The position numbers were made by a program, and so were the translations under genes. The notes beneath the pieces are model-generated. The model was not told the DNA's origin. It saw only the letters and a program-made list of their open reading frames with translations, and did no database searches. This document shows, piece after piece, positions 2,380 through 38,864 of a DNA stretch of 64,000 nucleotides (position 1 is its first letter; every line of letters starts with the position of its first letter). The stretch comes from Escherichia phage ukendt, in sequence record NC_052661.1; one strand, 5' to 3'.

Positions 2380-3488
2380 TTACCAAGCCCTCGTTTCACA
2401 GCAGCTACCATCCCGTCTTCCAGAGATTGAACTTCATTAATATAATCAACACGAGCAGCACGGGCTTCCGTATTGATGCGGTTAGTTTCTTCCAACATCT
2501 TAACCAAGTTTTCCTGATCGTGACGCAGAGTTTCAATATCCAACACTTGACGGTTAGCCAGTGCTGCTGCTTCGATCTGATTCTGTGTGGCAAGATCGCT
2601 ACCCAGTTTAATTGCCAGGTTAAATTCATCAAGAACGTTATTCTGCGTCTCTGCTGCTTTCATTTGACGTAAGCTCTCGATATACATTGAGAAGTTAGCA
2701 GAGTAAGCAGGAATAACATTATTTACTATGTTACGCGCAGATCGCATTAAGCTTGCAGAAACTTTTTGCATACCTTGTACACGCGGTCCCATTTGGACAC
2801 ACAGTAGGCGCAATGCTTTTAAATCTGCAATACGAATCTCCAGAAGATCCAAAGTATCCCGGATCACTTGTCGCTGTTCTACTGCATCTTCTGGAAGAGC
2901 AGCCAAAGCTTGTTCTTCTTTTTCATAGGTTGCTGTTAGAAGCTGCATATCTCGGTTCAAACTTGCAGCATATTGTCCAATAGCTTGATGTAGCTTTTCA
3001 AGATATACCAAGGAATCTTCTTCTTTGCGAATATCCATTTGAAGGTTCTTTACCAACTCTTCAATACGGTTATTAACATTATCAAACTCCCCGAACAGGT
3101 CTTCTTTCATACCCATAACTTTTTTAATGAGTTTAGTAATACCTTTGCTTTGTTTAATAGAGTTTGGATCAAGTTGTTTTGCCTGTTTAATCAAAGCTGT
3201 GAGTCGTTCACTCATCTGATCGCCTTGATTACTACGTTGATGTTTTAATACCTCGGCATTCAAGGAACGCAAGGTTGTTCCTGCCTCTGCCCCAATCTCT
3301 TCGATCTCTTGTCGGGTCATAGAAGGCAAAACTGGAACTTCTTGCGGTGCTGCTGGTGCGTAAACAGGACTGGCATCTAACACGCTTGGAGCGAATACAG
3401 ATTTACTTGCATCTGTTGTTGCAGCAAATACGCTCATTTCAGGCTTCTTCTGACCACCAGTAGCTGCTTTTAAAAATGGACTTGTCAT
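2376..3488 (-). CDS. TelA-like (toxic anion resistance family) coiled-coil protein
   Basis: 370 aa, long heptad-rich helical regions, Ala/Pro-rich N-terminus; family call from overall resemblance only. Confidence 0.4.
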   Translation of the reverse strand: MTSPFLKAATGGQKKPEMSVFAATTDASKSVFAPSVLDASPVYAPAAPQEVPVLPSMTRQEIEEIGAEAGTTLRSLNAEVLKHQRSNQGDQMSERLTALIKQAKQLDPNSIKQSKGITKLIKKVMGMKEDLFGEFDNVNNRIEELVKNLQMDIRKEEDSLVYLEKLHQAIGQYAASLNRDMQLLTATYEKEEQALAALPEDAVEQRQVIRDTLDLLEIRIADLKALRLLCVQMGPRVQGMQKVSASLMRSARNIVNNVIPAYSANFSMYIESLRQMKAAETQNNVLDEFNLAIKLGSDLATQNQIEAAALANRQVLDIETLRHDQENLVKMLEETNRINTEARAARVDYINEVQSLEDGMVAAVKRGLGK

Positions 3489-5311: not shown

Positions 5312-5658
5312 TTTAAAAATACCTCATCATCAGTTTCATTATCCCAGAAGAACAAATCCCAACCATTCGGATCATTCCATTTGGCTGCTGGAGAAGTCCA
5401 TATTTGTTCGATATCAATATTCAAAACTTCACCGTTTCGTTTTGAAACAGCTTTAGTTAATTCCCAACGAGATACAGGCTCTACTTCCCCTGAACCACTC
5501 CCACAACAAGCTACCACGTTAGGAGGCAAATTAATTGGATCTTTGGTCACGATCATAACGCTTACCCCAGGGTAAACTTTTGAAAGATAATCTAAAACGT
5601 AATCCACATCACCAGATAAATCCCAAACAAGTTCTTGAATTTCATCAAAATTATTCAT
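5308..5658 (-). CDS. hypothetical protein
   Basis: 116 aa ORF, RBS AGGAGA upstream. Confidence 0.5.
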   Translation of the reverse strand: MNNFDEIQELVWDLSGDVDYVLDYLSKVYPGVSVMIVTKDPINLPPNVVACCGSGSGEVEPVSRWELTKAVSKRNGEVLNIDIEQIWTSPAAKWNDPNGWDLFFWDNETDDEVFLK

Positions 5659-5669
5659 AAGTCTCTCCT

Positions 5670-5696
5670 ATAAAATAGCCTCCCGAAGGAGGCTCA
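5670..5696 (-). terminator. rho-independent terminator after terC
   Basis: AGCCTCC-cgaa-GGAGGCT hairpin followed by a U-rich tract on the minus strand. Confidence 0.5.
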
Positions 5697-5700
5697 TCTA

Positions 5701-6675
5701 TTAAACAGCAGCTTCTTCTTTTTCAGGGAAGATAAAGCTTGCAATAACACCAAGAGCTAATGTGCCTAGAACAATCATCAGACTTACGTTAGGGGAAATA
5801 TCATGCGGGAGGAATGACCACTTGGCATGAAGTGTTTCACCGAACGGGTGATACATAAGTTTAGCACCGACAAATACCAGAACCACAGCAACAGCTTTCT
5901 CTAAGTGAACCAGATATTTCACAGCTACACTTAACACAAAGAAAAGTGCACGTAAACCAAGAACAGCCATCAGCATTGCAGAATAAACTAGCAGAGGTTC
6001 TTGTGTCACACCAATAACAGCCGGAACTGAATCAAAAGAGAACACAATATCTGTAAGCTCAATAACAAACACACAAAGAAGAGCAGGAGTTGCATATTTA
6101 ATACCATTCTTAATGGTAATGAACTTTTCACCATCCAGTGCGTTGTGCACAGGCAGAACTTTACCTACTAAACGAACAGCCCAATGTTTAGAGTAATCAA
6201 TATCTTCTTCTTCGTCACCACCTTTGATAATAGCAACGGCAGACCAAGCTACAATCAGACCGAACAACACTTGGACCGACCAATGCAGGTTAAACAAAGC
6301 TGTCCCTGCTGCAACAAAAACACCTCGGAAGACAATGGCACCTGCAATACCCCAAAGTAAAATCTTATGTTGGAGATGTGTGCTCTTAATTCCAAAGCTT
6401 GCAAAAATTGCCATGAACACCATTAGGTTATCTACAGAAAGACTCTTTTCCAACACATATCCACTTAGGAAAAGTGCGGCAAACTCTTTACCATGCTCTA
6501 CCCAAATGAATGCGTAATATCCTAAAGCTAAAGCAATCCAAAAAACAGACCAAAGCAAAGCAGATTTAATTCCAATTTCTTTATTCTCTTTATGACCAAA
6601 GAAATCGATACCAATAGACAATGCCAAAATACCAACTAAAACAACTACATCAATAATTGGGAAACCGAGTTGCAT
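5701..6675 (-). CDS. terC: TerC-family integral membrane protein
   Basis: 324 aa multi-pass membrane protein with EKSLSVDN and ELTDIVFSFDSVPAV motifs typical of TerC. Confidence 0.7.
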   Translation of the reverse strand: MQLGFPIIDVVVLVGILALSIGIDFFGHKENKEIGIKSALLWSVFWIALALGYYAFIWVEHGKEFAALFLSGYVLEKSLSVDNLMVFMAIFASFGIKSTHLQHKILLWGIAGAIVFRGVFVAAGTALFNLHWSVQVLFGLIVAWSAVAIIKGGDEEEDIDYSKHWAVRLVGKVLPVHNALDGEKFITIKNGIKYATPALLCVFVIELTDIVFSFDSVPAVIGVTQEPLLVYSAMLMAVLGLRALFFVLSVAVKYLVHLEKAVAVVLVFVGAKLMYHPFGETLHAKWSFLPHDISPNVSLMIVLGTLALGVIASFIFPEKEEAAV

Positions 6676-6692
6676 TCTTTTCTCCTCTCTTT

Positions 6693-6751
6693 GCGGGGAA
6701 CTATTCCCCGCTTCATGTGATATATCTTACTCTTTTTAAGAACTATGTCAA
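6693..6751 (-). promoter_or_regulatory. cassette-type promoter + 5' hairpin driving terC
   Basis: On the minus strand: TTGACA, 16 nt, TAAGAT, then ACATGAAGCGGGGAATAGTTCCCCGC hairpin, RBS, ATG at 6675. Confidence 0.55.
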
Positions 6752-6754
6752 CAC

Positions 6755-6976
6755 TTATTTTGTTGAATGAGAGGAAAAGATTCCTCGTAATACCGCCAGA
6801 ATAAACGAAACACAAACCACGGTCCAGAAGGTTACTGGGACAGTGATATCTGCATGACCCATAACTTCAGCAACATAGTTGTAAGCCAGCAACAGTAACC
6901 AAGCTGGAATCAAACTAAGCATAAAAGCAATAACAAAAAAGCTTACCACTGCAACAATACCTGCAAAAACACCCAT
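6755..6976 (-). CDS. small membrane protein
   Basis: 73 aa, two hydrophobic segments. Confidence 0.5.
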   Translation of the reverse strand: MGVFAGIVAVVSFFVIAFMLSLIPAWLLLLAYNYVAEVMGHADITVPVTFWTVVCVSFILAVLRGIFSSHSTK

Positions 6977-6988
6977 ACTAATCTCCTC

Positions 6989-7462
6989 TTAAAGTTTATA
7001 AATAGTCACATCGTGACCTGTTTTTACTAAAGTTTCTTCAATCATCACTTGGATGATAGCCCAATTACCTCCAGCATATCCAGCGCCAATCATAGGTAAG
7101 CCGATCTTACATTTTTGGTCACGGAGAAGCAAATCATTAGCCATAGCTATTAGTGCATCGTAAAGTGCATCATAGTCCAACTGACGACCTTTAGCATTGT
7201 ATCCGTAACGGTATTGTCCGTATAGATTATATACCAAAGGGTCTGATTGTTCGTCTGGCAACCCTAAACTAAAAGAACCTAACTTACTTTGATCACCAGC
7301 CATTGTGTCTAAATCTGCCGCATATGCATAAGGGAATGCTCGTTTAATTTGCGGAGCAATTCCTGCTCCCATATTACACATACAATTGCAACAATGAGCA
7401 ATAACAGTTACTTCTCCTGCTTTAGCGGCATCAATAAGATTACCTGTTTTCATTTTAAGCAT
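6989..7462 (-). CDS. macro-domain protein (ADP-ribose binding/hydrolase)
   Basis: 157 aa; VIAHCCNCMCNMGAGIA and IGLPMIGAGYAGG match the two macro-domain Gly-rich loops. Confidence 0.6.
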   Translation of the reverse strand: MLKMKTGNLIDAAKAGEVTVIAHCCNCMCNMGAGIAPQIKRAFPYAYAADLDTMAGDQSKLGSFSLGLPDEQSDPLVYNLYGQYRYGYNAKGRQLDYDALYDALIAMANDLLLRDQKCKIGLPMIGAGYAGGNWAIIQVMIEETLVKTGHDVTIYKL

Positions 7463-27345: not shown

Positions 27346-27496
27346 TCCTATACAAACCCTTGTCTTTTTCAGTTTGCATCACTAGGATTCGATCTGAGTG
27401 GGTTCCTGAAGGTCTGCCAATAAGATTAAAGGTTATCTCAAATTCCCACTACCTATTATCTCAAAAATCCCTCAAATTATTTAAACTTTTTAAGAA

Positions 27497-27536
27497 TTTA
27501 CAAAAGTGAAAGTTGAAAACCAAAATTTAAAGTTTA
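27497..27536. repeat. direct repeat, copy 1 (TTTAAAGTTTA-containing unit)
   Basis: TTTACAAAAGTGAAAGTTGAAAACCAAAATTTAAAGTTTAG, imperfectly repeated at 27636. Confidence 0.5.
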
Positions 27537-27635
27537 GGAAAATTATCTTAAAATGTTAGATACAAAACAAAACTCAAAAGTCAAGGAAAATTTTAAAAAT
27601 TTTGCGCGCCCACAGTATTTAAAGTTTTTTTGCTT

Positions 27636-27675
27636 TTACAAAAATGAAAGTACAAAAGCAAAATTTAAAGTTTAC
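27636..27675. repeat. direct repeat, copy 2
   Basis: TTTACAAAAATGAAAGTACAAAAGCAAAATTTAAAGTTTAC. Confidence 0.5.
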
Positions 27676-27722
27676 AAAAATTTTTATGCAGGTGAAAATG
27701 AGAAGAGTTCTCATATGGAAAT

Positions 27723-27745
27723 GCAAATGATAATGATTCGCATTT
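27723..27745. promoter_or_regulatory. Fur-box-like operator (site A)
   Basis: GCAAATGATAATGATTCGCATTT, about 14 of 19 to the Fur consensus, 60 bp upstream of site B. Confidence 0.4.
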
Positions 27746-27761
27746 AAGTTTATAAATGAGA

Positions 27762-27803
27762 TTGATTCTTATTTAATAAGGTAAATGATAATCATTCTCA
27801 TTT
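27762..27803 (+). promoter_or_regulatory. promoter with Fur-box-like operator across the -10 (site B)
   Basis: TTGATT, 18 nt, TGATAAT; palindrome AAATGATAATCATTCTCATTT matches the Fur consensus GATAATGATAATCATTATC at 16 of 19 positions. Confidence 0.5.
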
Positions 27804-28021
27804 AGAGAATGACGCGCAGGGGCGGTGTTTGTCTCGCGCTCCCGTGTCCCCTCGCCATGTAATAAGAATAACAGATCCAGCCAGGAAAGCAAGAGATTAT
27901 TTTATCTTTACATTTCTTTACAAATATATAGCGCCCAGCCTACCGGCGATCAACCTTCCAACCAGTGCCTCTGGTATGTTAGCCCCGCCTTTACGCCGTG
28001 GGGTGGCGCTTCCTCTTCTGT

Positions 28022-28328: not shown

Positions 28329-28437
28329 GGTATCGCCCTTTCTTTGATGTGCGCCCTGGTTGGCGCGGTAGAAAGATGATAGCCCTTTCTTTTATATATA
28401 GCAAGCAAAAAGAAAATAAAAAAGATTGAAAAAGTGA

Positions 28438-28496
28438 TTGACGTTCGCCAGGTGGCGGCATAATATTTACCACGTAGGGCGGCAATGGTGCCGCTC
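28438..28496 (+). promoter_or_regulatory. cassette promoter + 5' hairpin module
   Basis: TTGACG, 17 nt, TAATAT, then ACGTAGGGCGGCAATGGTGCCGCTCA hairpin. Confidence 0.55.
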
Positions 28497-28515
28497 ATTA
28501 TTTGGAGTTAAAATC

Positions 28516-28713
28516 ATGGCAACATTGCACATTGTGGCGAAAGCTGGACAAATAAACGTGGTAGTAAACGGTTTTACTGAGTTCAGTCATCCCCAGGATG
28601 ATCATGAAACGGTTTTATCTTTCATTGATTCACTGTTAGAAATGGGAGTAATTACAGAAGACCAGCACGCTACAAAATGCAAACGCGTTAATCAGATTGC
28701 AGGAATAGAATAA
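28516..28713 (+). CDS. cassette small protein
   Basis: 65 aa; own promoter-hairpin module; GGAG RBS. Confidence 0.5.
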   Translation: MATLHIVAKAGQINVVVNGFTEFSHPQDDHETVLSFIDSLLEMGVITEDQHATKCKRVNQIAGIE

Positions 28714-28720
28714 AAAGTAT

Positions 28721-28783
28721 TGACAACAACCAACAACCTGATAAGATGTATCACATAGGGCGGCGGAATGGTCCAGCCGCTCA
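28721..28783 (+). promoter_or_regulatory. cassette promoter + 5' hairpin module
   Basis: TTGACA, 16 nt, TAAGAT, then ACATAGGGCGGCGGAATGGTCCAGCCGC hairpin. Confidence 0.55.
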
Positions 28784-28805
28784 CAACAGAAGAGAGATTA
28801 TAATC

Positions 28806-29078
28806 ATGGCATCATATAGCGCAACAATGATCGTAGCTGGCACCACTGGTAAACCTATGAGCGGTGGCGGATCTTTCGCAAATATCAACATTGACGGGCG
28901 TTTATCCCTGGACGCAGCGATCACCGTGGCGCGGGAAACATTTAAGAAAGAATGTAAATTCAATAAACAAGATTATCTCGGTTTTGCTATTGAAAAAACC
29001 GCGCGTTTTGTTGATTATAAAAGCCCAAAAATGGTTGATACTACACTAAAAGCGCAAGATGTAGCGTTTTTGCTTTAA
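28806..29078 (+). CDS. cassette small protein
   Basis: 90 aa; promoter-hairpin module; start refined to 28806. Confidence 0.5.
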   Translation: MASYSATMIVAGTTGKPMSGGGSFANINIDGRLSLDAAITVARETFKKECKFNKQDYLGFAIEKTARFVDYKSPKMVDTTLKAQDVAFLL

Positions 29079-29082
29079 GGTT

Positions 29083-29136
29083 TGACATTAACGAATAATT
29101 TGTTAATATGTTACATAAAGCGGGAATAGTTCCCGC
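29083..29136 (+). promoter_or_regulatory. cassette promoter + 5' hairpin module
   Basis: TTGACA, 16 nt, TAATAT, then GCGGGAATAGTTCCCGC hairpin. Confidence 0.55.
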
Positions 29137-29154
29137 TATTTGTAAGGTGGTAGA

Positions 29155-29412
29155 ATGTTTTACATCAAATTAAAAGGTCACGTGATCGCGTTCAAGGATA
29201 ACGCTTTTTACAGATTAGCAAAGTATGCGTTAATACATCCCCATTATGTTTATATAAGGGGGCGTGATGAAATAAATATTTTTGATCAAACAACATGCGA
29301 GAACATCGAGATCCGCAAGGTTGGCGTACGTGACTATCGTACATCTTTCTACCCTTGCAAGGATTCAGCAAGTCTTTTTAAAGTATGCCGATTGTTGAAA
29401 AAAGGTGGTTAA
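29155..29412 (+). CDS. cassette small protein
   Basis: 85 aa; promoter-hairpin module. Confidence 0.5.
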   Translation: MFYIKLKGHVIAFKDNAFYRLAKYALIHPHYVYIRGRDEINIFDQTTCENIEIRKVGVRDYRTSFYPCKDSASLFKVCRLLKKGG

Positions 29413-29413
29413 T

Positions 29414-29971
29414 ATGGGCCGCGAATATGTGATCCAGTCTTGGGTAAAACATGAAGCAGATGATCCGCGCATCATTCCTGATTATCTTGTCGATGAATCC
29501 ACGGGCTATAGCGGGGAGCAAATAGGTAACAGATTAGCACGTAGTAACGGCAACGTAAAAGCGCGTTATGTGCGCCCTGGTTGGCTGGCAAATGGTAACG
29601 CTGATTTATCCAGTGCGGAAGATGCGAGCGACGGCGCGAAAGATAATCCCTTGTACAAAGTTGATCCGGCTTTTCGTGTCCTGGATGAATACCCCAACAA
29701 GATAGCGGCGCTTGATGAAGCACTAGAAAGTAAGCGCATCACCTGGACCGCTTACAACATGGCAAAAAACGTACTTGATGGTAAACTGATTCAAGCGGAG
29801 AGAAAATTAGCCAAAATTGCAGCCATAGCCCAGGAGGAAGACGAGGAGACAACGGAAGAGGAAGAGTACGAAGAGATCCCGCCGTTGTTGTGTGTTGATG
29901 CTTTTCCTGATTATCAGCCGACAGAGGAAGAAAAAAGGATCGCCCTAGAAAACTTTGAAAATAGTCTTTGA
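29414..29971 (+). CDS. cassette protein with highly acidic C-terminus
   Basis: 186 aa; EEDEETTEEEEYEE tail; co-transcribed with preceding gene. Confidence 0.5.
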   Translation: MGREYVIQSWVKHEADDPRIIPDYLVDESTGYSGEQIGNRLARSNGNVKARYVRPGWLANGNADLSSAEDASDGAKDNPLYKVDPAFRVLDEYPNKIAALDEALESKRITWTAYNMAKNVLDGKLIQAERKLAKIAAIAQEEDEETTEEEEYEEIPPLLCVDAFPDYQPTEEEKRIALENFENSL

Positions 29972-30026
29972 CATATCGCCGCCACTAGCATAATATTTAC
30001 CACGTAGGGCGGCAATGGTGCCGCTC
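29968..30026 (+). promoter_or_regulatory. cassette promoter + 5' hairpin module
   Basis: TTGACA, 17 nt, TAATAT, then GCGGCAATGGTGCCGC hairpin. Confidence 0.55.
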
Positions 30027-30053
30027 ATAGTGAAATTATACAAGAGGCTTACA

Positions 30054-30149
30054 ATGATTAATAAAGAAAATAGCTTGACGGTTGGAACGATTAACGGTAT
30101 CATTCTAGCCGTTCCATTTTGGATTGTAGTAGCGGTTATTATTTTCTAA
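30054..30149 (+). CDS. cassette hydrophobic peptide
   Basis: 31 aa; own promoter-hairpin module. Confidence 0.35.
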   Translation: MINKENSLTVGTINGIILAVPFWIVVAVIIF

Positions 30150-30157
30150 AAATATTC

Positions 30158-30218
30158 TTGACAACGTTTTTTAATCTGATAAGATGTATCACATAGGGCG
30201 GCGGAATACTTCCCCGCC
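30158..30218 (+). promoter_or_regulatory. cassette promoter + 5' hairpin module
   Basis: TTGACA, 16 nt, TAAGAT, then GGGCGGCGGAATACTTCCCCGCC hairpin. Confidence 0.55.
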
Positions 30219-30239
30219 AAAACAAAAAAGGGTAACACA

Positions 30240-30602
30240 ATGAGCAAGCAAATCAATACTATCATGTTTAATCTGGTATCTTTCCGCGATGATATGAAAA
30301 ATTTACCACGTGAAACGGTTGATATTCATGTTTCAGCTTATCGCGCCCTTATTGACATGTTACCGCTAAAACGTGATCAACATGCCGCTAATATGATGCT
30401 TAATGCTATGCTTAAAAAGATGATTCAAACGGATCTTACTCTGGCATATGAGTATCAAGGGCGCTTATATGCAACTTACAACAAGGCGGTACCTGGTCTG
30501 GGAAGTACCGAAGAGTTGCACGGCTTAAACCTGGATCAAAACACTTGGGATAGTATGCGCCGCGTTATGGTATGGGCCGAAAGCGGTAAAATTTACGAAT
30601 AA
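30240..30602 (+). CDS. cassette small protein
   Basis: 120 aa; promoter-hairpin module. Confidence 0.5.
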   Translation: MSKQINTIMFNLVSFRDDMKNLPRETVDIHVSAYRALIDMLPLKRDQHAANMMLNAMLKKMIQTDLTLAYEYQGRLYATYNKAVPGLGSTEELHGLNLDQNTWDSMRRVMVWAESGKIYE

Positions 30603-30608
30603 AAACGG

Positions 30609-30668
30609 TTGACACTGTTTAAACTTCTGGTATAGTTTACCACATAGGGCGGGAAGTGGTTTCCCGCC
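30609..30668 (+). promoter_or_regulatory. cassette promoter + 5' hairpin module
   Basis: TTGACA, about 17 nt, TATAGT, then GGCGGGAAGTGGTTTCCCGCC hairpin. Confidence 0.55.
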
Positions 30669-30690
30669 AACAATTAAAAAGGTTATCATC

Positions 30691-31056
30691 ATGGCTATTA
30701 ATATTAATGTTTCCTCTTATGCTACCCTGGCTGACACGGCTAAAATTGAATTATCCAGCATTGAGGCGGTGCATATTAGCGCCCGTCGCTGGTTTCAACA
30801 GTCCTACGGTAACACATATTTTTCTTTAATGGTTGACGTTGAGATCGGCGGTAAACTGATCGAGGTGGTTAACGTTCCGTTTCAATATGGTTATGGTGAT
30901 CATTTTGATACCGTCGCCCTGGAAGAATTTAGCAAGGTCGTTAATATGGAAGGTAAAGAGTTTTCACGCGGCGCGTATCTTTCCCGTTTTTGCCGTGACA
31001 ATGGGATCACTGTATACAGTCATGCAAGCGATGTTAAACGTAAAAAAGATCTATAA
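30691..31056 (+). CDS. cassette small protein
   Basis: 121 aa; promoter-hairpin module. Confidence 0.5.
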   Translation: MAININVSSYATLADTAKIELSSIEAVHISARRWFQQSYGNTYFSLMVDVEIGGKLIEVVNVPFQYGYGDHFDTVALEEFSKVVNMEGKEFSRGAYLSRFCRDNGITVYSHASDVKRKKDL

Positions 31057-31063
31057 AAAGCAT

Positions 31064-31121
31064 TGACAGCACGAATAAAAAGAGTAAACTGTATTACATA
31101 GAGAGCGGGAACACTTCCCGC
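31064..31121 (+). promoter_or_regulatory. cassette promoter + 5' hairpin module
   Basis: TTGACA, 16 nt, TAAACT, then GCGGGAACACTTCCCGC hairpin. Confidence 0.55.
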
Positions 31122-31145
31122 CTCACTGAAAAAGAGAGAAAAATC

Positions 31146-31385
31146 ATGGCTAAATCTAAAATGTACAACGGTCACAAAAACAAAACTCATTGGAATGTAA
31201 GCCTTTGGATTAATAACGATGAATCATTGTATCGGTTTGCATTGGGATTGATCAATGAGTGCGGTAATAAAGATCAGGCGGCTGATTTAATGTGCTACCG
31301 TTTGAAACAGGATGGAATCACTACAACGCCAGACGGCTTTAAGTATAGTAAAACTGCAATCCGCGCCGCTATGGTTGGAATGTAA
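31146..31385 (+). CDS. cassette small protein
   Basis: 79 aa; promoter-hairpin module. Confidence 0.5.
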   Translation: MAKSKMYNGHKNKTHWNVSLWINNDESLYRFALGLINECGNKDQAADLMCYRLKQDGITTTPDGFKYSKTAIRAAMVGM

Positions 31386-31394
31386 TAAAAACAG

Positions 31395-31454
31395 TTGACA
31401 ACGTTTAAAATTAGTGTAAGATGTATCACATAGGGCGGGAAGTGGTTTCCCGCC
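31395..31454 (+). promoter_or_regulatory. cassette promoter + 5' hairpin module
   Basis: TTGACA, 16 nt, TAAGAT, then GGCGGGAAGTGGTTTCCCGCC hairpin. Confidence 0.55.
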
Positions 31455-31476
31455 AACAACAGAGAGATTAAAGATT

Positions 31477-31704
31477 ATGGCTATCAATATTGTTCGTGTA
31501 TCCGGCACCGTTGGCAGTTCCCAGGTTGTAGCAGTTATCACAGAGAAGAAAGGGGATGATCTTCACTCTTCCTTGAATAGCTGGGCGGTCGCTAACTTCG
31601 GGCAATGGTCGAGCGTTGAGTACATCGAATCCTACCAGGTGCCGACGATTAGCCTAACCGATCTCAACGTTGATCGCTTGTTGTGCCTGGATGAATTAAT
31701 CTGA
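31477..31704 (+). CDS. cassette small protein
   Basis: 75 aa; promoter-hairpin module. Confidence 0.5.
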   Translation: MAINIVRVSGTVGSSQVVAVITEKKGDDLHSSLNSWAVANFGQWSSVEYIESYQVPTISLTDLNVDRLLCLDELI

Positions 31705-31714
31705 AAAAAGATTG

Positions 31715-31772
31715 TTGACACCGGAAAGAAAAAGAGTAGAATATATTACATAGGGCGGCAATGGTGCCGCTC
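31715..31772 (+). promoter_or_regulatory. cassette promoter + 5' hairpin module
   Basis: TTGACA, 16 nt, TAGAAT, then GCGGCAATGGTGCCGC hairpin. Confidence 0.55.
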
Positions 31773-31795
31773 ACAACAGAAGAGAGATTATCACG

Positions 31796-32011
31796 ATGGC
31801 TAATATCCGCACTTTACTGAAAAATGCAAGTCAAGTTTTATTTTCAGATGACGAGTATTTCAATAAAGACATTACAGGCGTGAAAAATTTAAAAGACGTG
31901 AAGGATGTTATCGGTATTCGTGGATCTTTACGTAAAGGTGATTACTATGGTAACAAGGTGCAATATAAACTGTCAAAGGATTACAATTTTACTTTGACAA
32001 TTATTTCATAA
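31796..32011 (+). CDS. cassette small protein
   Basis: 71 aa; promoter-hairpin module. Confidence 0.5.
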   Translation: MANIRTLLKNASQVLFSDDEYFNKDITGVKNLKDVKDVIGIRGSLRKGDYYGNKVQYKLSKDYNFTLTIIS

Positions 32012-32017
32012 AACCGC

Positions 32018-32077
32018 TTGCAATACTGCAAAAATAAAGTAAACTATATTCATCAAGGCGGGGAATGGTCCGCCGCC
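32018..32077 (+). promoter_or_regulatory. cassette promoter + 5' hairpin module
   Basis: TTGCAA, 16 nt, TAAACT, then GGCGGGGAATGGTCCGCCGCC hairpin. Confidence 0.5.
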
Positions 32078-32101
32078 TAACAAAGAGAAGAGGAAAACAT
32101 C

Positions 32102-32275
32102 ATGATCACTTTCGCTACCCGTGAAGCCGCTCGCAACGTTGCACGTAAAGTTAACGCCGCCAACCTGGGCGCTACACTTAAAGCCCCGGTGAAAGATGAA
32201 TCAGGCAAATGGATCTTCCCTGGTCTGCGTCATGCTGACAAGTTAGGTACTTTAAGCCTTAAAAATAATCGTTGA
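32102..32275 (+). CDS. cassette small protein
   Basis: 57 aa ORF not in track; promoter-hairpin module. Confidence 0.4.
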   Translation: MITFATREAARNVARKVNAANLGATLKAPVKDESGKWIFPGLRHADKLGTLSLKNNR

Positions 32276-32309
32276 CTTTTCGTTATAGCGCCTTACAATG
32301 GGCGCTATA
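32272..32309 (+). promoter_or_regulatory. variant cassette promoter with palindrome across the -10
   Basis: TTGACT, 16 nt, TACAAT, embedded in TATAGCGCC...GGCGCTATA inverted repeat. Confidence 0.45.
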
Positions 32310-32342
32310 GAGAAGAGAAACCACTATTAACAAGGAAACATC

Positions 32343-32564
32343 ATGATTACTTTTGCTATTGTCGCCGTTGTTGCTGGTCAGGTTTACGTAAATGATACAT
32401 TCACCACAGAAGACAAGGCAGCAGGAGACATCACCGCCGCTTATAATGAGTGCAAGGCAGTAGAAAGGATGTTAGCGCCTTGTATGCTAATGAGTGAACG
32501 CCAGGACGGAATAACAGTATTTACTAACATTGAAACAGGGTACCAAATGGTAGTAACAAAATAA
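32343..32564 (+). CDS. cassette small protein
   Basis: 73 aa; variant promoter with palindrome. Confidence 0.5.
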   Translation: MITFAIVAVVAGQVYVNDTFTTEDKAAGDITAAYNECKAVERMLAPCMLMSERQDGITVFTNIETGYQMVVTK

Positions 32565-32567
32565 AGC

Positions 32568-32624
32568 TTGACACCGATTTAATTTTTAGTAAACTGTTAC
32601 ACGTAGGGCGGGAATAGTTCCCGC
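32568..32624 (+). promoter_or_regulatory. cassette promoter + 5' hairpin module
   Basis: TTGACA, 16 nt, TAAACT, then GCGGGAATAGTTCCCGC hairpin. Confidence 0.55.
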
Positions 32625-32643
32625 TCAAAAAGAGAGAAAGACC

Positions 32644-32997
32644 ATGAAAGCACAAAATGCAATTAAAGAGTACATCCTTGCCGCTATCGATTTTAATGAT
32701 TACGGTATTACAACCGAAAAAGAGAAGATCGCGGAATTGATGCGCCGTTTTAATTCCGAGTACTGGTACCCTGATAACCAATCACGTTTTAATTATAGTA
32801 TTGTTAAAGCACTTGCATCATGGTTACAAGGCTTGCCATCAGATATCAATATCGCTTTCGAATATTGGGAAATTGATCGCCTGTTAACATCCTGGGGATA
32901 CATTAAAGAGAATAGCAGCGATGATAAAATCCAACGAGAAAGGGAAAATTATTGGCTTTATATTGCAGGCGTGATCCTTGCTTGCTCTTATGAATGA
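32644..32997 (+). CDS. cassette small protein
   Basis: 117 aa; promoter-hairpin module. Confidence 0.5.
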   Translation: MKAQNAIKEYILAAIDFNDYGITTEKEKIAELMRRFNSEYWYPDNQSRFNYSIVKALASWLQGLPSDINIAFEYWEIDRLLTSWGYIKENSSDDKIQRERENYWLYIAGVILACSYE

Positions 32998-33003
32998 TAA
33001 ACC

Positions 33004-33058
33004 TTGACAATTTTACAAAACAGTTTAAATTAACAATATAGCGGCAATGGTGCCGCTC
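33004..33058 (+). promoter_or_regulatory. cassette promoter + 5' hairpin module
   Basis: TTGACA, A/T-rich -10 region, then GCGGCAATGGTGCCGC hairpin. Confidence 0.5.
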
Positions 33059-33076
33059 ATATGAAGAGGAAACAAA

Positions 33077-33223
33077 ATGAATACATCTAATCGCGCAGAA
33101 AAAATTCAATCTTCCAAGATCCGCAAGGCCTGGAACGAGGAAGTGATCCGCAAAGGCGACAAGCGCAATAAAACAAAGCGCGGGAAGAGTGACAAATATA
33201 ATTGGATGGATTTAGAGGATTAA
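33077..33223 (+). CDS. cassette small basic protein
   Basis: 48 aa Lys/Arg-rich; promoter-hairpin module; followed by terminator. Confidence 0.4.
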   Translation: MNTSNRAEKIQSSKIRKAWNEEVIRKGDKRNKTKRGKSDKYNWMDLED

Positions 33224-33230
33224 CATAACA

Positions 33231-33257
33231 AGGGCGCATCAAGCGCCCTTTCTTTTT
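33231..33257 (+). terminator. rho-independent terminator inside the cassette array
   Basis: AGGGCGC-ATCAA-GCGCCCT followed by TTCTTTTT. Confidence 0.6.
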
Positions 33258-33278
33258 ACATGTAGAGGATAAACAAAA

Positions 33279-33464
33279 ATGATTTTAAACGAGCTTAAAA
33301 CAGCCTACAACGCAACATTAAAAATAGCCGTGCGTTACCGTGATGCGTACGGTTTTATCGCGCAGGGCGTGATCCTGGGCTTTTCTGACGATGGTTTGAT
33401 CTATGTTGATGCACATCACAACAAGGTTAAACCGGAAAACGTTATCAATATAAAATATCTTTAA
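33279..33464 (+). CDS. cassette small protein
   Basis: 61 aa; RBS GAGGA. Confidence 0.45.
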   Translation: MILNELKTAYNATLKIAVRYRDAYGFIAQGVILGFSDDGLIYVDAHHNKVKPENVINIKYL

Positions 33465-33470
33465 AAGTGG

Positions 33471-33527
33471 TTGACACCATAACCGGACCTGTTAAACTGT
33501 ATTACATCAGGCGGGGAATAGTTCCCC
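33471..33527 (+). promoter_or_regulatory. cassette promoter + 5' hairpin module
   Basis: TTGACA, 16 nt, TAAACT, then GGGGAATAGTTCCCC hairpin. Confidence 0.55.
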
Positions 33528-33550
33528 CACCATACAAAAAGGTAAATATT

Positions 33551-33757
33551 ATGATCACCGCAAAACAAGAAAAAATCATTATCGACGTTGCAGCCGTTGC
33601 CGCTATTGCTATTATTGGATCTTATTATGATACCCGTTTCCCGTCGGCTATGCATGAGATCGCCGCCGTTGCATCAGTCGGCGTGCTGTTTTACGTTGGT
33701 AAACGCTATTTATCACCAATGATTAACAAGCTGACACCGTGGAAAAATAAAGGTTGA
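33551..33757 (+). CDS. cassette small membrane protein
   Basis: 68 aa; promoter-hairpin module; start refined to 33551. Confidence 0.5.
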   Translation: MITAKQEKIIIDVAAVAAIAIIGSYYDTRFPSAMHEIAAVASVGVLFYVGKRYLSPMINKLTPWKNKG

Positions 33758-33810
33758 TCCTGTTTTATATTGTGTTATAGTTATCGTGTAGGGCGGCAAT
33801 GGTGCCGCGC
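33754..33810 (+). promoter_or_regulatory. cassette promoter + 5' hairpin module
   Basis: TTGATC, 16 nt, TATAGT, then GCGGCAATGGTGCCGC hairpin. Confidence 0.5.
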
Positions 33811-33829
33811 CCCCTTTGAGGATGAAATC

Positions 33830-34114
33830 ATGAGTAAAGCTAACACCGTGCTAATGTTTTCCCTGATTAATGATCCCGCTTACTTGTCCAACATGACGCA
33901 GGAGGGTAACACATTAACGGCAACATTCACCAATAAGCTTGACCGAGTGATCATCATCTCACTGAAAACAGTTAGTAAAGGCTTTTACTCGTTAGCTTAT
34001 CATTGGATCACCGATACCGATGAGACAAGCCAGGACTATAGCGCCCCTTTCCCTGAATCAATGGCACGGGAGATCATCGCCGCCGTTGTAAATGATGGTT
34101 TGTTTACTGCATAA
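33830..34114 (+). CDS. cassette small protein
   Basis: 94 aa; shares 25-nt initiation region with gene at 24955. Confidence 0.5.
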   Translation: MSKANTVLMFSLINDPAYLSNMTQEGNTLTATFTNKLDRVIIISLKTVSKGFYSLAYHWITDTDETSQDYSAPFPESMAREIIAAVVNDGLFTA

Positions 34115-34131
34115 ATAATTTAGAAAAAGGC

Positions 34132-34188
34132 TTGCAATCATTTTGAGATAGTGTATATTTAATTCATAGGGCGGCGGGAATAGTTCCC
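34132..34188 (+). promoter_or_regulatory. cassette promoter + 5' hairpin module
   Basis: TTGCAA, 16 nt, TATATT, then GGGAATAGTTCCC hairpin. Confidence 0.5.
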
Positions 34189-34211
34189 AAAGCAAACGAG
34201 AGGATTACACG

Positions 34212-34330
34212 ATGAGCAAGTACACAGTAGAATACACGGTAGAAAATCCGGCAGTATCCGAAGGTAAAAAGATGACATTTGCCATCAGTATAATCGCTTT
34301 CGTTGTCACTATCTTATCAATCATCTTATA
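34212..34330 (+). CDS. cassette hydrophobic peptide
   Basis: 39 aa with C-terminal TM segment; promoter-hairpin module. Confidence 0.35.
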
Positions 34331-34341
34331 AGGTGCACACC

Positions 34342-34503
34342 ATGAAAACAACAGATATTATCAAAGAGATCGCCCTTGCCGCTGGCGTTGAGATCGAGGA
34401 AGTGATCGCGCTCAATCTTACAGAAAACGATCTGCGCAACTATGAAGCGGAAAGCGTGAAAGCAAGCGGTGCGATCCTGGCATATAATCCGGCTAACAAG
34501 TAA
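34342..34503 (+). CDS. cassette small protein
   Basis: 53 aa ORF. Confidence 0.35.
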   Translation: MKTTDIIKEIALAAGVEIEEVIALNLTENDLRNYEAESVKASGAILAYNPANK

Positions 34504-34512
34504 GGGGATAAC

Positions 34513-34623
34513 ATGAATCCGAAAGATATGCAAGCATGGAAAGGGTACGACGATCTGAGCGCCTTGCGTAATAAGTCCAGCCGTAACCTTAGACGATTGC
34601 AAGCAAAGAAAAAGAAAAAATAG
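34513..34623 (+). CDS. cassette small basic protein
   Basis: 36 aa ending KKKKK. Confidence 0.3.
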   Translation: MNPKDMQAWKGYDDLSALRNKSSRNLRRLQAKKKKK

Positions 34624-34624
34624 T

Positions 34625-34682
34625 TTGACAAGTCCGCTTAATCTGATAATATGTATCTTGTAGGGCGGCAATGGTGCCGCTC
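34625..34682 (+). promoter_or_regulatory. cassette promoter + 5' hairpin module
   Basis: TTGACA, 16 nt, TAATAT, then GCGGCAATGGTGCCGC hairpin. Confidence 0.55.
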
Positions 34683-34701
34683 ACAAGAAGAGAGAAAAAT
34701 C

Positions 34702-34986
34702 ATGAAAATCACAAAAAGCCTAACTAATTATGCAGCACGTCGCGGATTATGTTTAACCGTTGAAAACTTAGGGAAAGAAGACTTTTTGTGTTTTTGGGAG
34801 CTTGAAAACGATTGCGAGTGGATGTTTTCCTATTCTATCTGCGAAGATCAAAACGGTTGTTTGTTAACCTGGCGCGGTAATATTTATTTACCGGAAGAAA
34901 TTAAAGAGGAATTACCAGGTACGATCATGACAGAGAGACAGCTTAAGGAAATGATTAATTTTGTAGGGCAAAACATTAAAAAATAA
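34702..34986 (+). CDS. cassette small protein
   Basis: 94 aa; promoter-hairpin module. Confidence 0.5.
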   Translation: MKITKSLTNYAARRGLCLTVENLGKEDFLCFWELENDCEWMFSYSICEDQNGCLLTWRGNIYLPEEIKEELPGTIMTERQLKEMINFVGQNIKK

Positions 34987-34987
34987 T

Positions 34988-35050
34988 TTGACAGCACGCA
35001 AACAACGTAGTAAAGTTTACCACATAGGGCGGCGGAATGGTCCACCGCTC
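34988..35050 (+). promoter_or_regulatory. cassette promoter + 5' hairpin module
   Basis: TTGACA, 17 nt, TAAAGT, then GGGCGGCGGAATGGTCCACCGC hairpin. Confidence 0.55.
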
Positions 35051-35071
35051 ACAACAGAAGAGAAACAAATC

Positions 35072-35242
35072 ATGATCCCGACTATGTTTTATGTATCGCG
35101 CAAAGGTCACAATATTTTTTGGTCTGAAGATTTAAATGAAGCCATGACGTTTGCCCGTGATCGTGTTGCTATCGGTGGCGTTAACATCACCGTAACCGAT
35201 GAAAATGGCATTGAATACTATAACGGCGACGATGAAGAGTAA
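35072..35242 (+). CDS. cassette small protein
   Basis: 56 aa; promoter-hairpin module. Confidence 0.45.
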   Translation: MIPTMFYVSRKGHNIFWSEDLNEAMTFARDRVAIGGVNITVTDENGIEYYNGDDEE

Positions 35243-35249
35243 TTAATGA

Positions 35250-35267
35250 GGCGGGGAGTACCCCGCC
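35250..35267 (+). promoter_or_regulatory. cassette-type GC hairpin without recognisable -35/-10
   Basis: GGCGGGGAGTACCCCGCC, 20 nt upstream of the ATG at 35287. Confidence 0.4.
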
Positions 35268-35286
35268 GTCAATAAAGAGGTAAATC

Positions 35287-35556
35287 ATGAAAATATCATT
35301 GGACGTTGCAATCAAGGCCATCGAATCCGGTTACATCCTGGTAAAAGATGATAAGGCTAAAATAGTGCATCATGTTAACAAGGAAACAGGCGAGAGCATG
35401 ATCACATATAAAGCCGCCTACTTTCTCCAATCAGTAGCAGATCCGCGCGTACAACGCCAGGTTACAGCGGCTATTGCTAAAAAATTATGTGCTTTACAGG
35501 GTGCAAGTTTTAACGAGATTGCCCCGTGTTTTGAGTGGTCAAGCTTGAAAAAATAA
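35287..35556 (+). CDS. cassette small protein
   Basis: 89 aa; preceded by GC hairpin only. Confidence 0.5.
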   Translation: MKISLDVAIKAIESGYILVKDDKAKIVHHVNKETGESMITYKAAYFLQSVADPRVQRQVTAAIAKKLCALQGASFNEIAPCFEWSSLKK

Positions 35557-35557
35557 T

Positions 35558-35619
35558 TTGACAACAATTATAAATCGGGTAGAATGTATTTCGTAGGGCG
35601 GGGCAATAAGGCAACGCCC
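35558..35619 (+). promoter_or_regulatory. cassette promoter + 5' hairpin module
   Basis: TTGACA, 16 nt, TAGAAT, then GGGCG...CGCCC hairpin. Confidence 0.5.
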
Positions 35620-35634
35620 ATTAATGAGGGTAGA

Positions 35635-35742
35635 ATGATGTTAGAGAAAATTTTCACGGTTGTAATAGTGGGCCTGGCGTTATCGGTTGGAGTGGTTGCA
35701 ACTATGGCTAACATGATCCTATCTTCCCACGGTATCGGCTAA
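35635..35742 (+). CDS. cassette hydrophobic peptide
   Basis: 35 aa single TM; promoter-hairpin module. Confidence 0.35.
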   Translation: MMLEKIFTVVIVGLALSVGVVATMANMILSSHGIG

Positions 35743-35752
35743 GGTGAAACAA

Positions 35753-35968
35753 ATGATCACGAATAAGACAGGTAAAACGGAATTTTTACGCGGCTTGCAA
35801 GTTGGTAAACCTGAGATCTGGCATTGTACTAAATCCGCGCATAATGAAATGAAAGATTTTACCGCTACTTTACAACGTGTTAAAATATCTATCACACAGA
35901 AAAAAGCCTTGTTAGTAGTAGAAAACGAGATCCCGCAAACTATTATTATTGTCGAGCGTACAGCATGA
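35753..35968 (+). CDS. cassette small protein
   Basis: Start refined to ATG 35753. Confidence 0.45.
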   Translation: MITNKTGKTEFLRGLQVGKPEIWHCTKSAHNEMKDFTATLQRVKISITQKKALLVVENEIPQTIIIVERTA

Positions 35969-36351
35969 AAACAGAAATCATTATTGAAATCATCAACGGT
36001 TATAAAGAAGCCTTTATTTTTGCTGAATCAGCAAGGGATCATGAAGGTAATTTTATTGAAAACTTAGACGATTATGATTTTTCTCCTAGCGCGGACGAAC
36101 GGATCGCCCAGGATGTAACAGCCTTTATTAATGCTAATCTTGCCGCTATCTCTGAGGCAATGAGCGACGGCGCAACAGCCAACCAGATCGGGAATGATTT
36201 ACATTTTACCCGTAACGGTCACGGCGTAGGCTTTTGGGATCGCCCTGAAATATACACCACTAACACGGCGAACCGCCTAACCAATGCAGCTAAGTTTATG
36301 CCGAACGTGTCGGCTTACATTGGTGAAGATAATTTGATTTATATTGAATAA
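35965..36351 (+). CDS. cassette small protein
   Basis: 128 aa; translationally coupled. Confidence 0.5.
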   Translation: MKTEIIIEIINGYKEAFIFAESARDHEGNFIENLDDYDFSPSADERIAQDVTAFINANLAAISEAMSDGATANQIGNDLHFTRNGHGVGFWDRPEIYTTNTANRLTNAAKFMPNVSAYIGEDNLIYIE

Positions 36352-36357
36352 AAAGTA

Positions 36358-36415
36358 TTGACACAGATCGCCAGTGTGCTAATATTTACCACGTAGGGCG
36401 GCAATGGTGCCGCCG
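36358..36415 (+). promoter_or_regulatory. cassette promoter + 5' hairpin module
   Basis: TTGACA, 16 nt, TAATAT, then GGCGGCAATGGTGCCGCC hairpin. Confidence 0.55.
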
Positions 36416-36432
36416 ATAATGAGGAAAGTAAA

Positions 36433-36732
36433 ATGGAAACTATCGCTATTGTTACCGTAGAAAAACTGGTTGTTGGTGATGTATTCGCGTTAATGGTGCC
36501 TAACAGCAGCAAGCTGGGCGCTTATGAAGTAATGGATCATAAAAATGAATCATTTGGCGACGGTTGCACAATGGCGGTAAAATCTTTAAAGGATGGAATT
36601 ATCCGCCAGGCTAACTGGCACAAAGGGAATCAAGTCGGTTTAATATCAGCTAATTTCTTGCCAGAAGAGCAAACGTTAGACCAACTATCAGGCGGTAAGA
36701 CGTTAGCCGAACTACTGGAAACAGCGATCTAA
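36433..36732 (+). CDS. cassette small protein
   Basis: 99 aa; promoter-hairpin module. Confidence 0.5.
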   Translation: METIAIVTVEKLVVGDVFALMVPNSSKLGAYEVMDHKNESFGDGCTMAVKSLKDGIIRQANWHKGNQVGLISANFLPEEQTLDQLSGGKTLAELLETAI

Positions 36733-36739
36733 TCGACAA

Positions 36740-36755
36740 GGGGCGGCAACGCCCC
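36740..36755 (+). promoter_or_regulatory. cassette-type GC hairpin without recognisable promoter
   Basis: GGGGCGGCAACGCCCC between stop at 36732 and ATG at 36786. Confidence 0.35.
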
Positions 36756-36785
36756 CATTAAACGCAATAGGAAGAGGATAGACAC

Positions 36786-37076
36786 ATGAAAAAGATGATC
36801 GCAGTAGTTGCCCTGGTTGTTGGTATTAACGCGCCTGTAATGGCGAAAGAGTTGCCAGAATCCATCACGTTAACCGATATCAACGCAATAAACCGGATCG
36901 GCGTTAATTATCGCCTATGCCTTGCCGCTAAAACTTTCCAGGACGGCACAACAGAGTACTACGGATTCGAGGGTACCCGCTGCGGTGAGCTTGCACGCGA
37001 CCTTAAGGAAGATCCAGACCTTGAGGCCATACCGATGACCGTAAACGGTAAAGCTTACGTAAACCGCCAACAATGA
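36786..37076 (+). CDS. cassette secreted protein
   Basis: 96 aa; signal peptide MKKMIAVVALVVGINAPVMA. Confidence 0.5.
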   Translation: MKKMIAVVALVVGINAPVMAKELPESITLTDINAINRIGVNYRLCLAAKTFQDGTTEYYGFEGTRCGELARDLKEDPDLEAIPMTVNGKAYVNRQQ

Positions 37077-37207
37077 GAAAGGTAATCATCACAATGGGGA
37101 TCGTAGTAGCAACGCTGGCGCTTATCCCCTTCATGGTTGAACATGTGCTGATCAGTGTTGTCCTTGTAGTCAGTGACCTATTGGAAACGGTTGGCACCTG
37201 GTTTTAA
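37073..37207 (+). CDS. cassette hydrophobic peptide
   Basis: 44 aa ORF overlapping upstream stop (ATGA). Confidence 0.35.
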   Translation: MRKVIITMGIVVATLALIPFMVEHVLISVVLVVSDLLETVGTWF

Positions 37208-37381
37208 GATAATAAATAGGGCTTGCAATAGTCCTATTTTTTGTTATACTTATTGAACGGGCGGCACCTGGGAGCAGGGGAAGATAATCACCGGAAGACC
37301 CCGCTATATATTGATAACTAACGCCTATCAAACAACAAAACATCAAAGGAACAAACTATCAAATCTTTACAATTCTACCTA

Positions 37382-37410
37382 TTGACACCGGATCACGCTT
37401 ACATTATTAT
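37382..37410 (+). promoter_or_regulatory. sigma70-like promoter with degenerate hairpin
   Basis: TTGACA, 17 nt, TATTAT, then ACGTAGGGC without the complementary arm. Confidence 0.45.
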
Positions 37411-37456
37411 TTATCACGTAGGGCAAATCATTTTAAACGGTAAACGAGGAATCACC

Positions 37457-37840: not shown

Positions 37841-37855
37841 ATAACATTTCATACC

Positions 37856-38843: not shown

Positions 38844-38864
38844 AAATAATAATCATTCTCATAT
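38844..38864. promoter_or_regulatory. Fur-box-like operator (site C)
   Basis: AAATAATAATCATTCTCATAT shares the core AATCATTCTCAT with sites B and D. Confidence 0.4.

Follow-up and report, generated by a model that had tools for sequence, protein, structure and literature searches.

The leader of a Phapecoctavirus terC gene very probably shares the promoter-hairpin cassette of a distant small-gene array

Results

The stretch of DNA analyzed here, hereafter the window, comprises 64,000 nucleotides of Escherichia phage ukendt (NC_052661.1), a phAPEC8-like E. coli myovirus of the genus Phapecoctavirus (Stephanstirmvirinae) that is colinear with phage 536P1. Within a long block of minus-strand genes lies terC (5701..6675, minus strand), a 324-aa open reading frame (ORF) matching the TerC family (Pfam PF03741, E = 3e-40). 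The terC region is 99.3% identical to that of phage Ro121c4YLVW and 96.6% identical to that of phAPEC8. An upstream 73-aa ORF ends in a stop codon at 6757-6755, and the second ORF upstream (6989-7462, minus strand) encodes a Macro-domain protein (PF01661, E = 7e-5, with a score barely exceeding the gathering threshold). Directly past the terC stop codon is an intrinsic terminator (5670..5694, minus strand), in which the hairpin AGCCTCC-TTCG-GGAGGCT (5694-5677) is followed by ATTTTAT; the same terminator is annotated in phage ASO2A. Having its own predicted promoter in front (6751-6724) and its own predicted terminator behind (5694-5677), terC would constitute a self-contained, moron-like transcription unit. 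Read-through transcription into terC from the minus-strand block is possible.

The sequence upstream of terC was as the preliminary description gave it: on the minus strand, TTGACA, 16 nt, and TAAGAT are followed by a hairpin, a ribosome binding site, and ATG. In full, positions 6765..6673 read caacaaaaTAAgtg-TTGACA-tagttcttaaaaagag-TAAGAT-atatcacatgaa-GCGGGGAA-TAG-TTCCCCGC-aaagagAGGAGaaaaga-ATG. The A-rich stretch caacaaaaTAAgtg (6752..6765), whose TAA is the stop codon of the 73-aa ORF, corresponds to the AAAAAnnn upstream portion of the array consensus described below. It is followed by a -35 hexamer of sigma70 consensus (TTGACA, 6746..6751), belonging to a promoter annotated in both phAPEC8 and ASO2A, and, after the 16-nt spacer tagttcttaaaaagag, by the -10 hexamer TAAGAT (6724..6729). 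By the rules for E. coli start sites, transcription is predicted to begin at 6716, the A of CAT and the 8th nucleotide past the -10 hexamer. The resulting leader of ~41 nt would carry the hairpin GCGGGGAA-UAG-UUCCCCGC (6693..6711) at about +6 to +24 and an AG-rich Shine-Dalgarno (SD) region, GAGAGGAG (6682..6689), 6 nt 5' of the ATG. The terC ATG is located at 6675, 48 nt past the -10 hexamer. The span from the first T of the -35 hexamer through the final hairpin base occupies 6693-6751, and this complete 59-nt pattern has a single match in the window, at that position on the minus strand, with zero matches expected in shuffled sequence.

Folding of the RNA from the predicted start base (6716) gave an 8-bp hairpin of -14.6 kcal/mol (z = -4.4), and none of 200 shuffles was equally stable. 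When the leader was folded together with the first codons (77 nt, 6640-6716, minus strand), the SD bases GGAGA were weakly paired with UUUCC in codons 5-7. In this model, such pairing might modulate translation.

We considered other functions that a leader at this position could have. Bacterial genes of the alx/terC family are usually led by the yybP-ykoY (Mn2+) riboswitch. Across the window, Rfam returned no match at the gathering threshold, and at E ≤ 5 the interval 5500-7100 contained no relevant match. With no covariance match and a leader of only ~41 nt, we rejected a yybP-ykoY riboswitch before terC. A leaderless mini-ORF that would begin with the AUG in cAUGaag was likewise rejected for lack of conservation, as a 2-nt indel occurs there in phAPEC8 and array copies lack the AUG.

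Parts of this leader already carry database annotation. In phAPEC8 (JX561091), the sequence upstream of terC is annotated as a "putative host dependent promoter determined with MEME". The same terC promoter is annotated in ASO2A (MZ726793), where the hairpin is a "rho-independent terminator predicted by WebGeSTer". In the phAPEC8 array, a 20-nt feature labeled "putative promoter determined with PHIRE" (e.g., 3202-3221) comes after every MEME promoter, and this 20-mer is the hairpin box, gtagggcggcaatggtgccg; the terC copy is not in the phAPEC8 list of PHIRE sites. Hence, one element bears three conflicting database labels ("host promoter", "PHIRE promoter", and "terminator"), with promoter and box entered as distinct features, and none of these labels ties terC to the array. 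The promoter had been annotated before, but searchable papers neither connect terC with the array nor describe a module confined to the array plus terC.

The array (28430..37424, plus strand) consists of ~20 promoter-hairpin-SD modules, located between 28438 and 37424, each preceding a small ORF of 35-127 aa. Ten array ORFs had PHROG matches, every one to a family of unknown function. Each module comprises an AAAAA-rich stretch, TTGACA, a spacer of 16-17 nt, TAnnnT, and (g)tatcaCATAGGGCGG leading into a hairpin with G-rich and C-rich arms (-11 to -17 kcal/mol). Beyond the hairpin lie an A/G-rich leader and, 45-58 nt past the -10 hexamer, the ATG. The separation of ~22 kb reported in the preliminary description was accurate, as terC lies 21.7 kb from the array.

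To compare the terC leader with these modules, we used an nhmmer profile trained solely on 16 array modules, with terC excluded. The profile matched the window at 6758..6693 (minus strand; E = 6.2e-10, 37.1 bits), with the alignment beginning at model position 2. This score falls within the 33-56 bits of the array members themselves, and the same profile found terC in phAPEC8 (E = 6e-11) and 536P1 (E = 3e-10). The geometry of the terC leader also follows that of the array, with a 16-nt spacer, GCGG in the identical register of 12 nt past the -10 hexamer, a hairpin of -14.6 kcal/mol, and ATG at +48 nt. Its -10 hexamer recurs in array modules 28720, 30158, and 31395, a single near-copy of its 19-nt hairpin lies at 33511-33529 in the array (two mismatches), and GGGAATAGTTCCC is found in three further array modules (repeat family D6).

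A short motif performed less well than the whole module. The box ACAT(A/G)GGGCGG is exact in 11 array modules, whereas terC reads ACATGAAGCGG, with mismatches at 2 of 11 positions, and accepted array copies 29113, 33504, and 34658 likewise deviate. The whole-genome search proposed earlier with this motif would therefore miss terC. Since 16 chance matches are expected in the window when two mismatches are allowed, membership of terC rests on the whole module rather than the short motif. On this basis, the claim that the terC leader is the array module, hairpin included, was borne out by both profile and register, and we are highly confident that terC is preceded by the same cassette as the array genes, with a host-type promoter.

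The same cannot be said of the proposal that the module is a genome-wide regulatory unit, as terC provides the only copy outside the array in the window and in two complete relatives. In the 147.7 kb genome of phAPEC8, terC is the only non-array match and the next best has E = 0.43. In the 149.5 kb genome of 536P1, the profile matched 19 array sites plus terC, with the next best at E = 0.19. The box is also missing from a dozen or more other near-consensus sigma70 promoters of the window (e.g., 21272-, 18869-, 48090+, 49007+, and 60623-). Taken together, these results define the module family as "array plus terC". As for the suggested co-regulation of terC with the array genes, their common host-type promoter makes similar early timing plausible as judged from sequence. 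We found no transcript 5' ends, time courses, or half-lives for Phapecoctavirus or Stephanstirmvirinae in the searchable literature.

What recurs more widely is the design, a promoter with a hairpin in the 5'-UTR, and not the sequence. In phAPEC8, two more non-array promoters have unrelated 5'-UTR hairpins, at 45695 (minus strand; GGGAGGA/TCCTCCC) and 52157 (minus strand). We observed that these sites belong to a second, unrelated class of promoter plus 5'-UTR hairpin (GGGAGAG/CTCTCCC type), which precedes non-array genes such as a neighbor of thymidylate synthase. Further sites of this class occur in Klebsiella phage phi1_175008 (36721 and 104820, both minus strand) and Justusliebigvirus alia (125990, minus strand). 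The Klebsiella-phage terC hairpin is of this second class and not of the array class.

Orthologs of terC in other Stephanstirmvirinae have the same layout of promoter, hairpin, SD, and ATG with different stems. The hairpin is GCGGGGA-GUGGU-UCCCCGC in phAPEC8 and phiWec188, GCGGAGGA-UUG-UCCUCCGC in Justusliebigvirus muut and alia, and GAGGGGG-AUAGG-CUCCCUC in Klebsiella phage phi1_175008. A search of IMG/VR for TerC-related loci returned four, and two IMG/VR contigs carry the terC hairpins GGGAGAG-AUAGG-CUCUCCC and GAGGGAG-AUAGG-CUCCCUC. Klebsiella phage KP13-16 has terC without promoter or hairpin, implying that the cassette is dispensable for terC. Across 29 hairpins from array copies, terC orthologs, and relatives, there were 15 distinct inner 6-bp stems, all with folding energies of -11 to -17 kcal/mol. 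A MAFFT alignment of 16 modules yielded no consensus structure with RNAalifold because stems of unequal length were misaligned, and per-copy folding anchored at the loop was used in its place.

These different but compensating stems among terC orthologs appear to reflect selection on structure. The 5' arm is always G-rich, the 3' arm C-rich, and every wobble pair joins G in the 5' arm to U in the 3' arm. On the opposite strand, such pairs would be C-A mismatches, which points to the sense RNA. Sequence comparison thus indicates selection on the structure of the sense strand, most simply as RNA. Arrays in each of the three genera examined, represented by Phapecoctavirus, Justusliebigvirus, and a Klebsiella phage, keep the array-type box, yet profile scores at terC were 37-40 bits in Phapecoctavirus, 14 in Justusliebigvirus, and 8 in the Klebsiella phage, where only the promoter matched. 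Two histories would account for these scores: conversion of the terC leader by an array copy in Phapecoctavirus, or drift away from the array type in the other lineages.

A separate scan of IMG/VR used a degenerate pattern of promoter plus GCGG. The pattern demanded GCGG at its position and required neither the 3' arm nor repetition. The matches listed were mostly chance singletons, and the scan is unsuited to counting the family. Four of the contigs matched (L039, L018, L028, and L062) are GC-rich, ~70 kb long, and unrelated, and contain at least 3-6 copies of TTGACA-N17-TAACTT-..GTGTGAGGCGGG-loop-CCCGCC..GGAG..ATG before small ORFs. These arrays combine promoter, GGCGGG/CCCGCC hairpin, and SD in the register of the Phapecoctavirus cassette. 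Contig L039 is 99.5% identical to Mycobacterium phage Thonko (MH632120, 61.8-69.5 kb); among the matches listed, other mycobacteriophages had weaker matches than Thonko.

We next consider recombination. When the array of the window (30124-37857) was compared with that of phAPEC8 (145360-5495), blocks of homology broke at four positions linked to modules. One break coincides with the exact first base of a module's -35 hexamer in both phages (31395, plus strand), and two others fall inside modules, just past the -10 hexamer (35594, plus strand) and at the hairpin (37424, plus strand). The fourth, at 1267 of phAPEC8, lies 6 nt before a module, where a 360-bp insertion corresponds to one module and one ORF. 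Judging by these breaks, the array would behave like a hyperplastic region rich in promoter-early stem-loops (PeSLs), the T4-like elements to which we return below.

The terC locus (7000-5640, minus strand) is mosaic as well. The 73-aa ORF with its module occurs as two alleles, as does the terC ORF, whose alleles are ~70% identical in nucleotide sequence. All four combinations occur among the window, phAPEC8, Mt1B1_P17, and phiWec188. Crossovers map 20-70 nt inside the terC ORF (~6655-6607) and just before its stop codon (~5780), and none maps to the module. By analogy, terC may behave like the "plastic nonessential adaptive genes" flanking PeSLs in the core regions of T4-like phages.

Other repeats were observed in the non-coding regions flanking the array. 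Fur-box-like sequences occur on both sides (27720-27810, 38843-38871, and 39022-39050) as three related copies of one repeat family (D13). The best site, GTAAATGATAATCATTCTC at 27781-27799, agrees with GATAATGATAATCATTATC at 16 of 19 positions (0.04 sites expected by chance). By their sequence, these sites may point to regulation by iron or other metals close to the early region. Two 72-nt direct repeats (27473-27544 and 27611-27682; family D10), 82% identical and 138 nt apart, occupy AT-rich non-coding DNA to the left of the array and could be an origin or a regulatory region.

Discussion

Our preferred reading, which we consider probable but far from assured, is that terC is a self-contained unit expressed from a cassette read by the host RNA polymerase, presumably early, and equipped with a 5' stem-loop that stabilizes or insulates the transcript. 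Unmodified host sigma70 RNA polymerase would read the promoter early in infection and start at the CA located ~7-8 nt past TAAGAT. The transcript would begin with 3-5 free nucleotides, continue through the stem-loop into an open A/G-rich leader, and present a strong SD. In our folds, predicted transcripts have 3-5 unpaired 5' nucleotides, with ~5 at terC.

The hairpin would most likely act in RNA, where a stem-loop close to the 5' end is expected to limit decay that depends on RppH and RNase E acting at the 5' end. In E. coli, about five unpaired 5' nucleotides reportedly mark the edge of protection, according to work by Belasco. Emory in 1992, Bouvet and Belasco in 1992, and Arnold in 1998 are said to have found that 5' stem-loops stabilize the ompA and papA mRNAs. 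An accessible 5' end allows far more rapid cleavage by RNase E than a base-paired one (reviewed in PMC3997798). With a fixed hairpin, a portable unit of promoter and SD would in addition be insulated from whichever ORF comes next, since a leader folded independently of its cargo gene leaves the SD free. We hold this stabilizing or insulating role, suggested by the arrangement of the sequence, to have somewhere near an even chance and no better. Repeated cassettes might double as patches of homology for gene shuffling in the fashion of PeSLs.

Several points count against the overall reading: the ~5 unpaired 5' nucleotides predicted at terC would put it at the edge of protection, recombination junctions at terC lie within the ORF and not in the module, and KP13-16 carries terC with no module at all. 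Furthermore, the conservation of ACAT(A/G)GGGCGG exceeds what a role in structure alone would need. This excess could stem from recent duplication, gene conversion, or recognition by a factor.

The last of these possibilities leads to an alternative in which the CACAT-GGCGG box and hairpin are the target of a phage or host regulator, either an RNA-binding protein or a DNA-binding protein positioned over the start site, that would switch the array genes and terC jointly as a dedicated regulon. Sequence conservation beyond pairing, exemplified by the 11 exact ACRTRGGGCGG boxes in the array, is what such a regulon would predict, as is the persistence of a GGCGG-type box in the arrays of Phapecoctavirus, Justusliebigvirus, and the Klebsiella phage. 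The module family is also confined to a defined set of genes rather than spread over all sigma70 promoters. However, the loops vary freely (AUGG, UAG, GUGGU, CAC, UAC, and AAUAAG) while the stems covary, the terC box has two mismatches to the 11-nt consensus, and the terC hairpins of Justusliebigvirus and the Klebsiella phage are not of the array type even though their arrays are. Nor did we find a candidate regulator, as the array ORFs tested all fell into PHROG families of unknown function. We regard a regulator target as unlikely.

A second alternative assigns the cassette at terC no role in expression, treating it as a recombination scar or patch of homology that was copied from, or converted by, an array module and that would matter chiefly for the modular shuffling of genes. 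The coincidence of array indel boundaries with modules suggests as much, as do the mosaic terC region with all four allele combinations and the restriction of an array-like terC hairpin to Phapecoctavirus (37-40 bits, versus 14 and 8 elsewhere). However, all terC orthologs other than that of KP13-16 keep a promoter, a stable hairpin, and an SD in one common arrangement, even where the sequence is unrelated, which argues that the structure is selected. The crossovers also fall in the terC ORF instead of the module. A mere scar is accordingly improbable in our judgment.

Third, the hairpin could terminate or attenuate transcription arriving from upstream genes, as proposed for the stem-loops of PeSLs. 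It sits between two genes on the same strand, it was annotated as a terminator in ASO2A by WebGeSTer, and a PeSL stem-loop cut reporter expression as strongly as rrnB T1. Against this, a GC-rich hairpin directly followed by a U-tract is not what is seen: AAAGAGAGG follows at terC and CUCACAACAG in the array. Only 1 of ~20 array hairpins passed even a lax terminator scan, and terminator scanning reported 5694-5677 but not the terC hairpin. True T-run terminators were detected at 5694-5677, 33230-33250, and 37856-37874. Moreover, the hairpin lies downstream of its own promoter, so that as a terminator it would also stop the terC transcript. Termination is thus a very unlikely function.

Least credible is a phage-specific promoter formed by the 20-nt box itself, which we consider extremely improbable. 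The PHIRE features in phAPEC8, including 3202-3221, do exactly cover the hairpin box, but PHIRE returns any over-represented 20-mer, the terC copy is not among its sites, and the box always lies 7 nt past a consensus sigma70 -10 hexamer in fixed register, forms a hairpin with compensating changes, and leaves just 17-27 nt before the ATG. Three further candidates were rejected: antitermination of the rrn/lambda boxA-boxB type, as GCCGCUCACAACA of the array is only loosely boxA-like by eye and is missing at terC; an N4-type DNA hairpin promoter, as a canonical sigma70 promoter precedes the hairpin; and an RNase III site, as the stem has merely 7-9 bp.

If the preferred reading of a host-transcribed cassette with a 5' stem-loop is right, an accessory membrane gene has been wired into the expression format of presumed early small-ORF genes in a widely isolated group of coliphages that are therapeutic candidates. 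The cassette would also be a compact, naturally insulated unit for strong expression, and as such a candidate for phage engineering. A specialist in phage transcription would find nothing conceptually surprising in it. A more ambitious, joint proposal is that promoter, 5' hairpin, and SD make up a general portable unit of virulent and temperate phages, and that its GGCGG version, in the array plus terC, defines a regulon with a dedicated factor; we doubt that this combination holds. A portable unit may have arisen or spread in unrelated lineages, namely the PeSLs of T4-like phages, the arrays of Stephanstirmvirinae, and the arrays located at the right end of Mycobacterium phage Thonko. Were a dedicated GGCGG regulon real, a membrane protein of a metal-transport family would be deliberately co-expressed with presumed takeover genes.

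The cassette can be compared with three known systems. The leader of T7 gene 10 is an example of stabilization by a 5'-terminal stem-loop. Like this leader and those of ompA and papA, the cassette would have a stable hairpin a few nucleotides from the 5' end, beyond which the leader is open and carries a strong SD. It differs from these leaders in that the start is predicted, ~5 nucleotides would be unpaired at the 5' end of terC, and the stabilizing role is proposed by analogy.

Morons, as described by Hendrix and colleagues, are autonomous promoter-gene-terminator units in phage genomes, and were defined in temperate phages, where they are expressed from the prophage. Similarly, terC, an accessory and host-like gene whose alleles are mosaic, has its own predicted promoter and terminator within a longer block. 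In the record of one Klebsiella phage, a terC homolog is labeled "moron, auxiliary metabolic gene and host takeover". Unlike morons, terC resides in a virulent myovirus and has a promoter common to a gene array.

The defining elements of PeSLs in T4-like phages are AT-rich sequence, a sigma70 promoter, a stem-loop of the form Gn-loop-Cn, and an SD (Arbiol et al. 2010, PMC2839356; Comeau et al. 2014, PMC4122927). They also occur in core regions beside plastic, nonessential adaptive genes (PMC2839356; PMC4122927). The likeness to our cassette is extensive: both are repeated intergenic units of ~70 bp in which AT-rich sequence and a near-consensus sigma70 promoter are combined with a Gn-loop-Cn stem-loop and with an SD and start codon. 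Both are concentrated in a hyperplastic region before small genes of unknown function, where the units bound indels between close relatives, which in our case applies to the array and not to terC. Occasional core copies of PeSLs next to plastic, nonessential adaptive genes mirror the situation of terC. The differences lie in lineage, as PeSLs belong to T4-like myoviruses and the cassette to Stephanstirmvirinae (Phapecoctavirus), and in the stem-loop. PeSL stem-loops are placed upstream of, between, or over the promoter hexamers and have been shown to terminate transcription, whereas here the stem-loop is always 3' of the -10 hexamer, in fixed register within the predicted transcript, and its sequence, lacking a U-tract, argues against termination. 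Given a PeSL-like composition, distribution, and association with indels in another lineage and with another stem placement, we view the cassette as working in the manner of a PeSL without being one in the strict sense. The idea of cassettes that both express and shuffle accessory genes would thereby reach beyond T4-like phages to a second lineage of myoviruses, in which the stem-loop has shifted into the predicted transcript.
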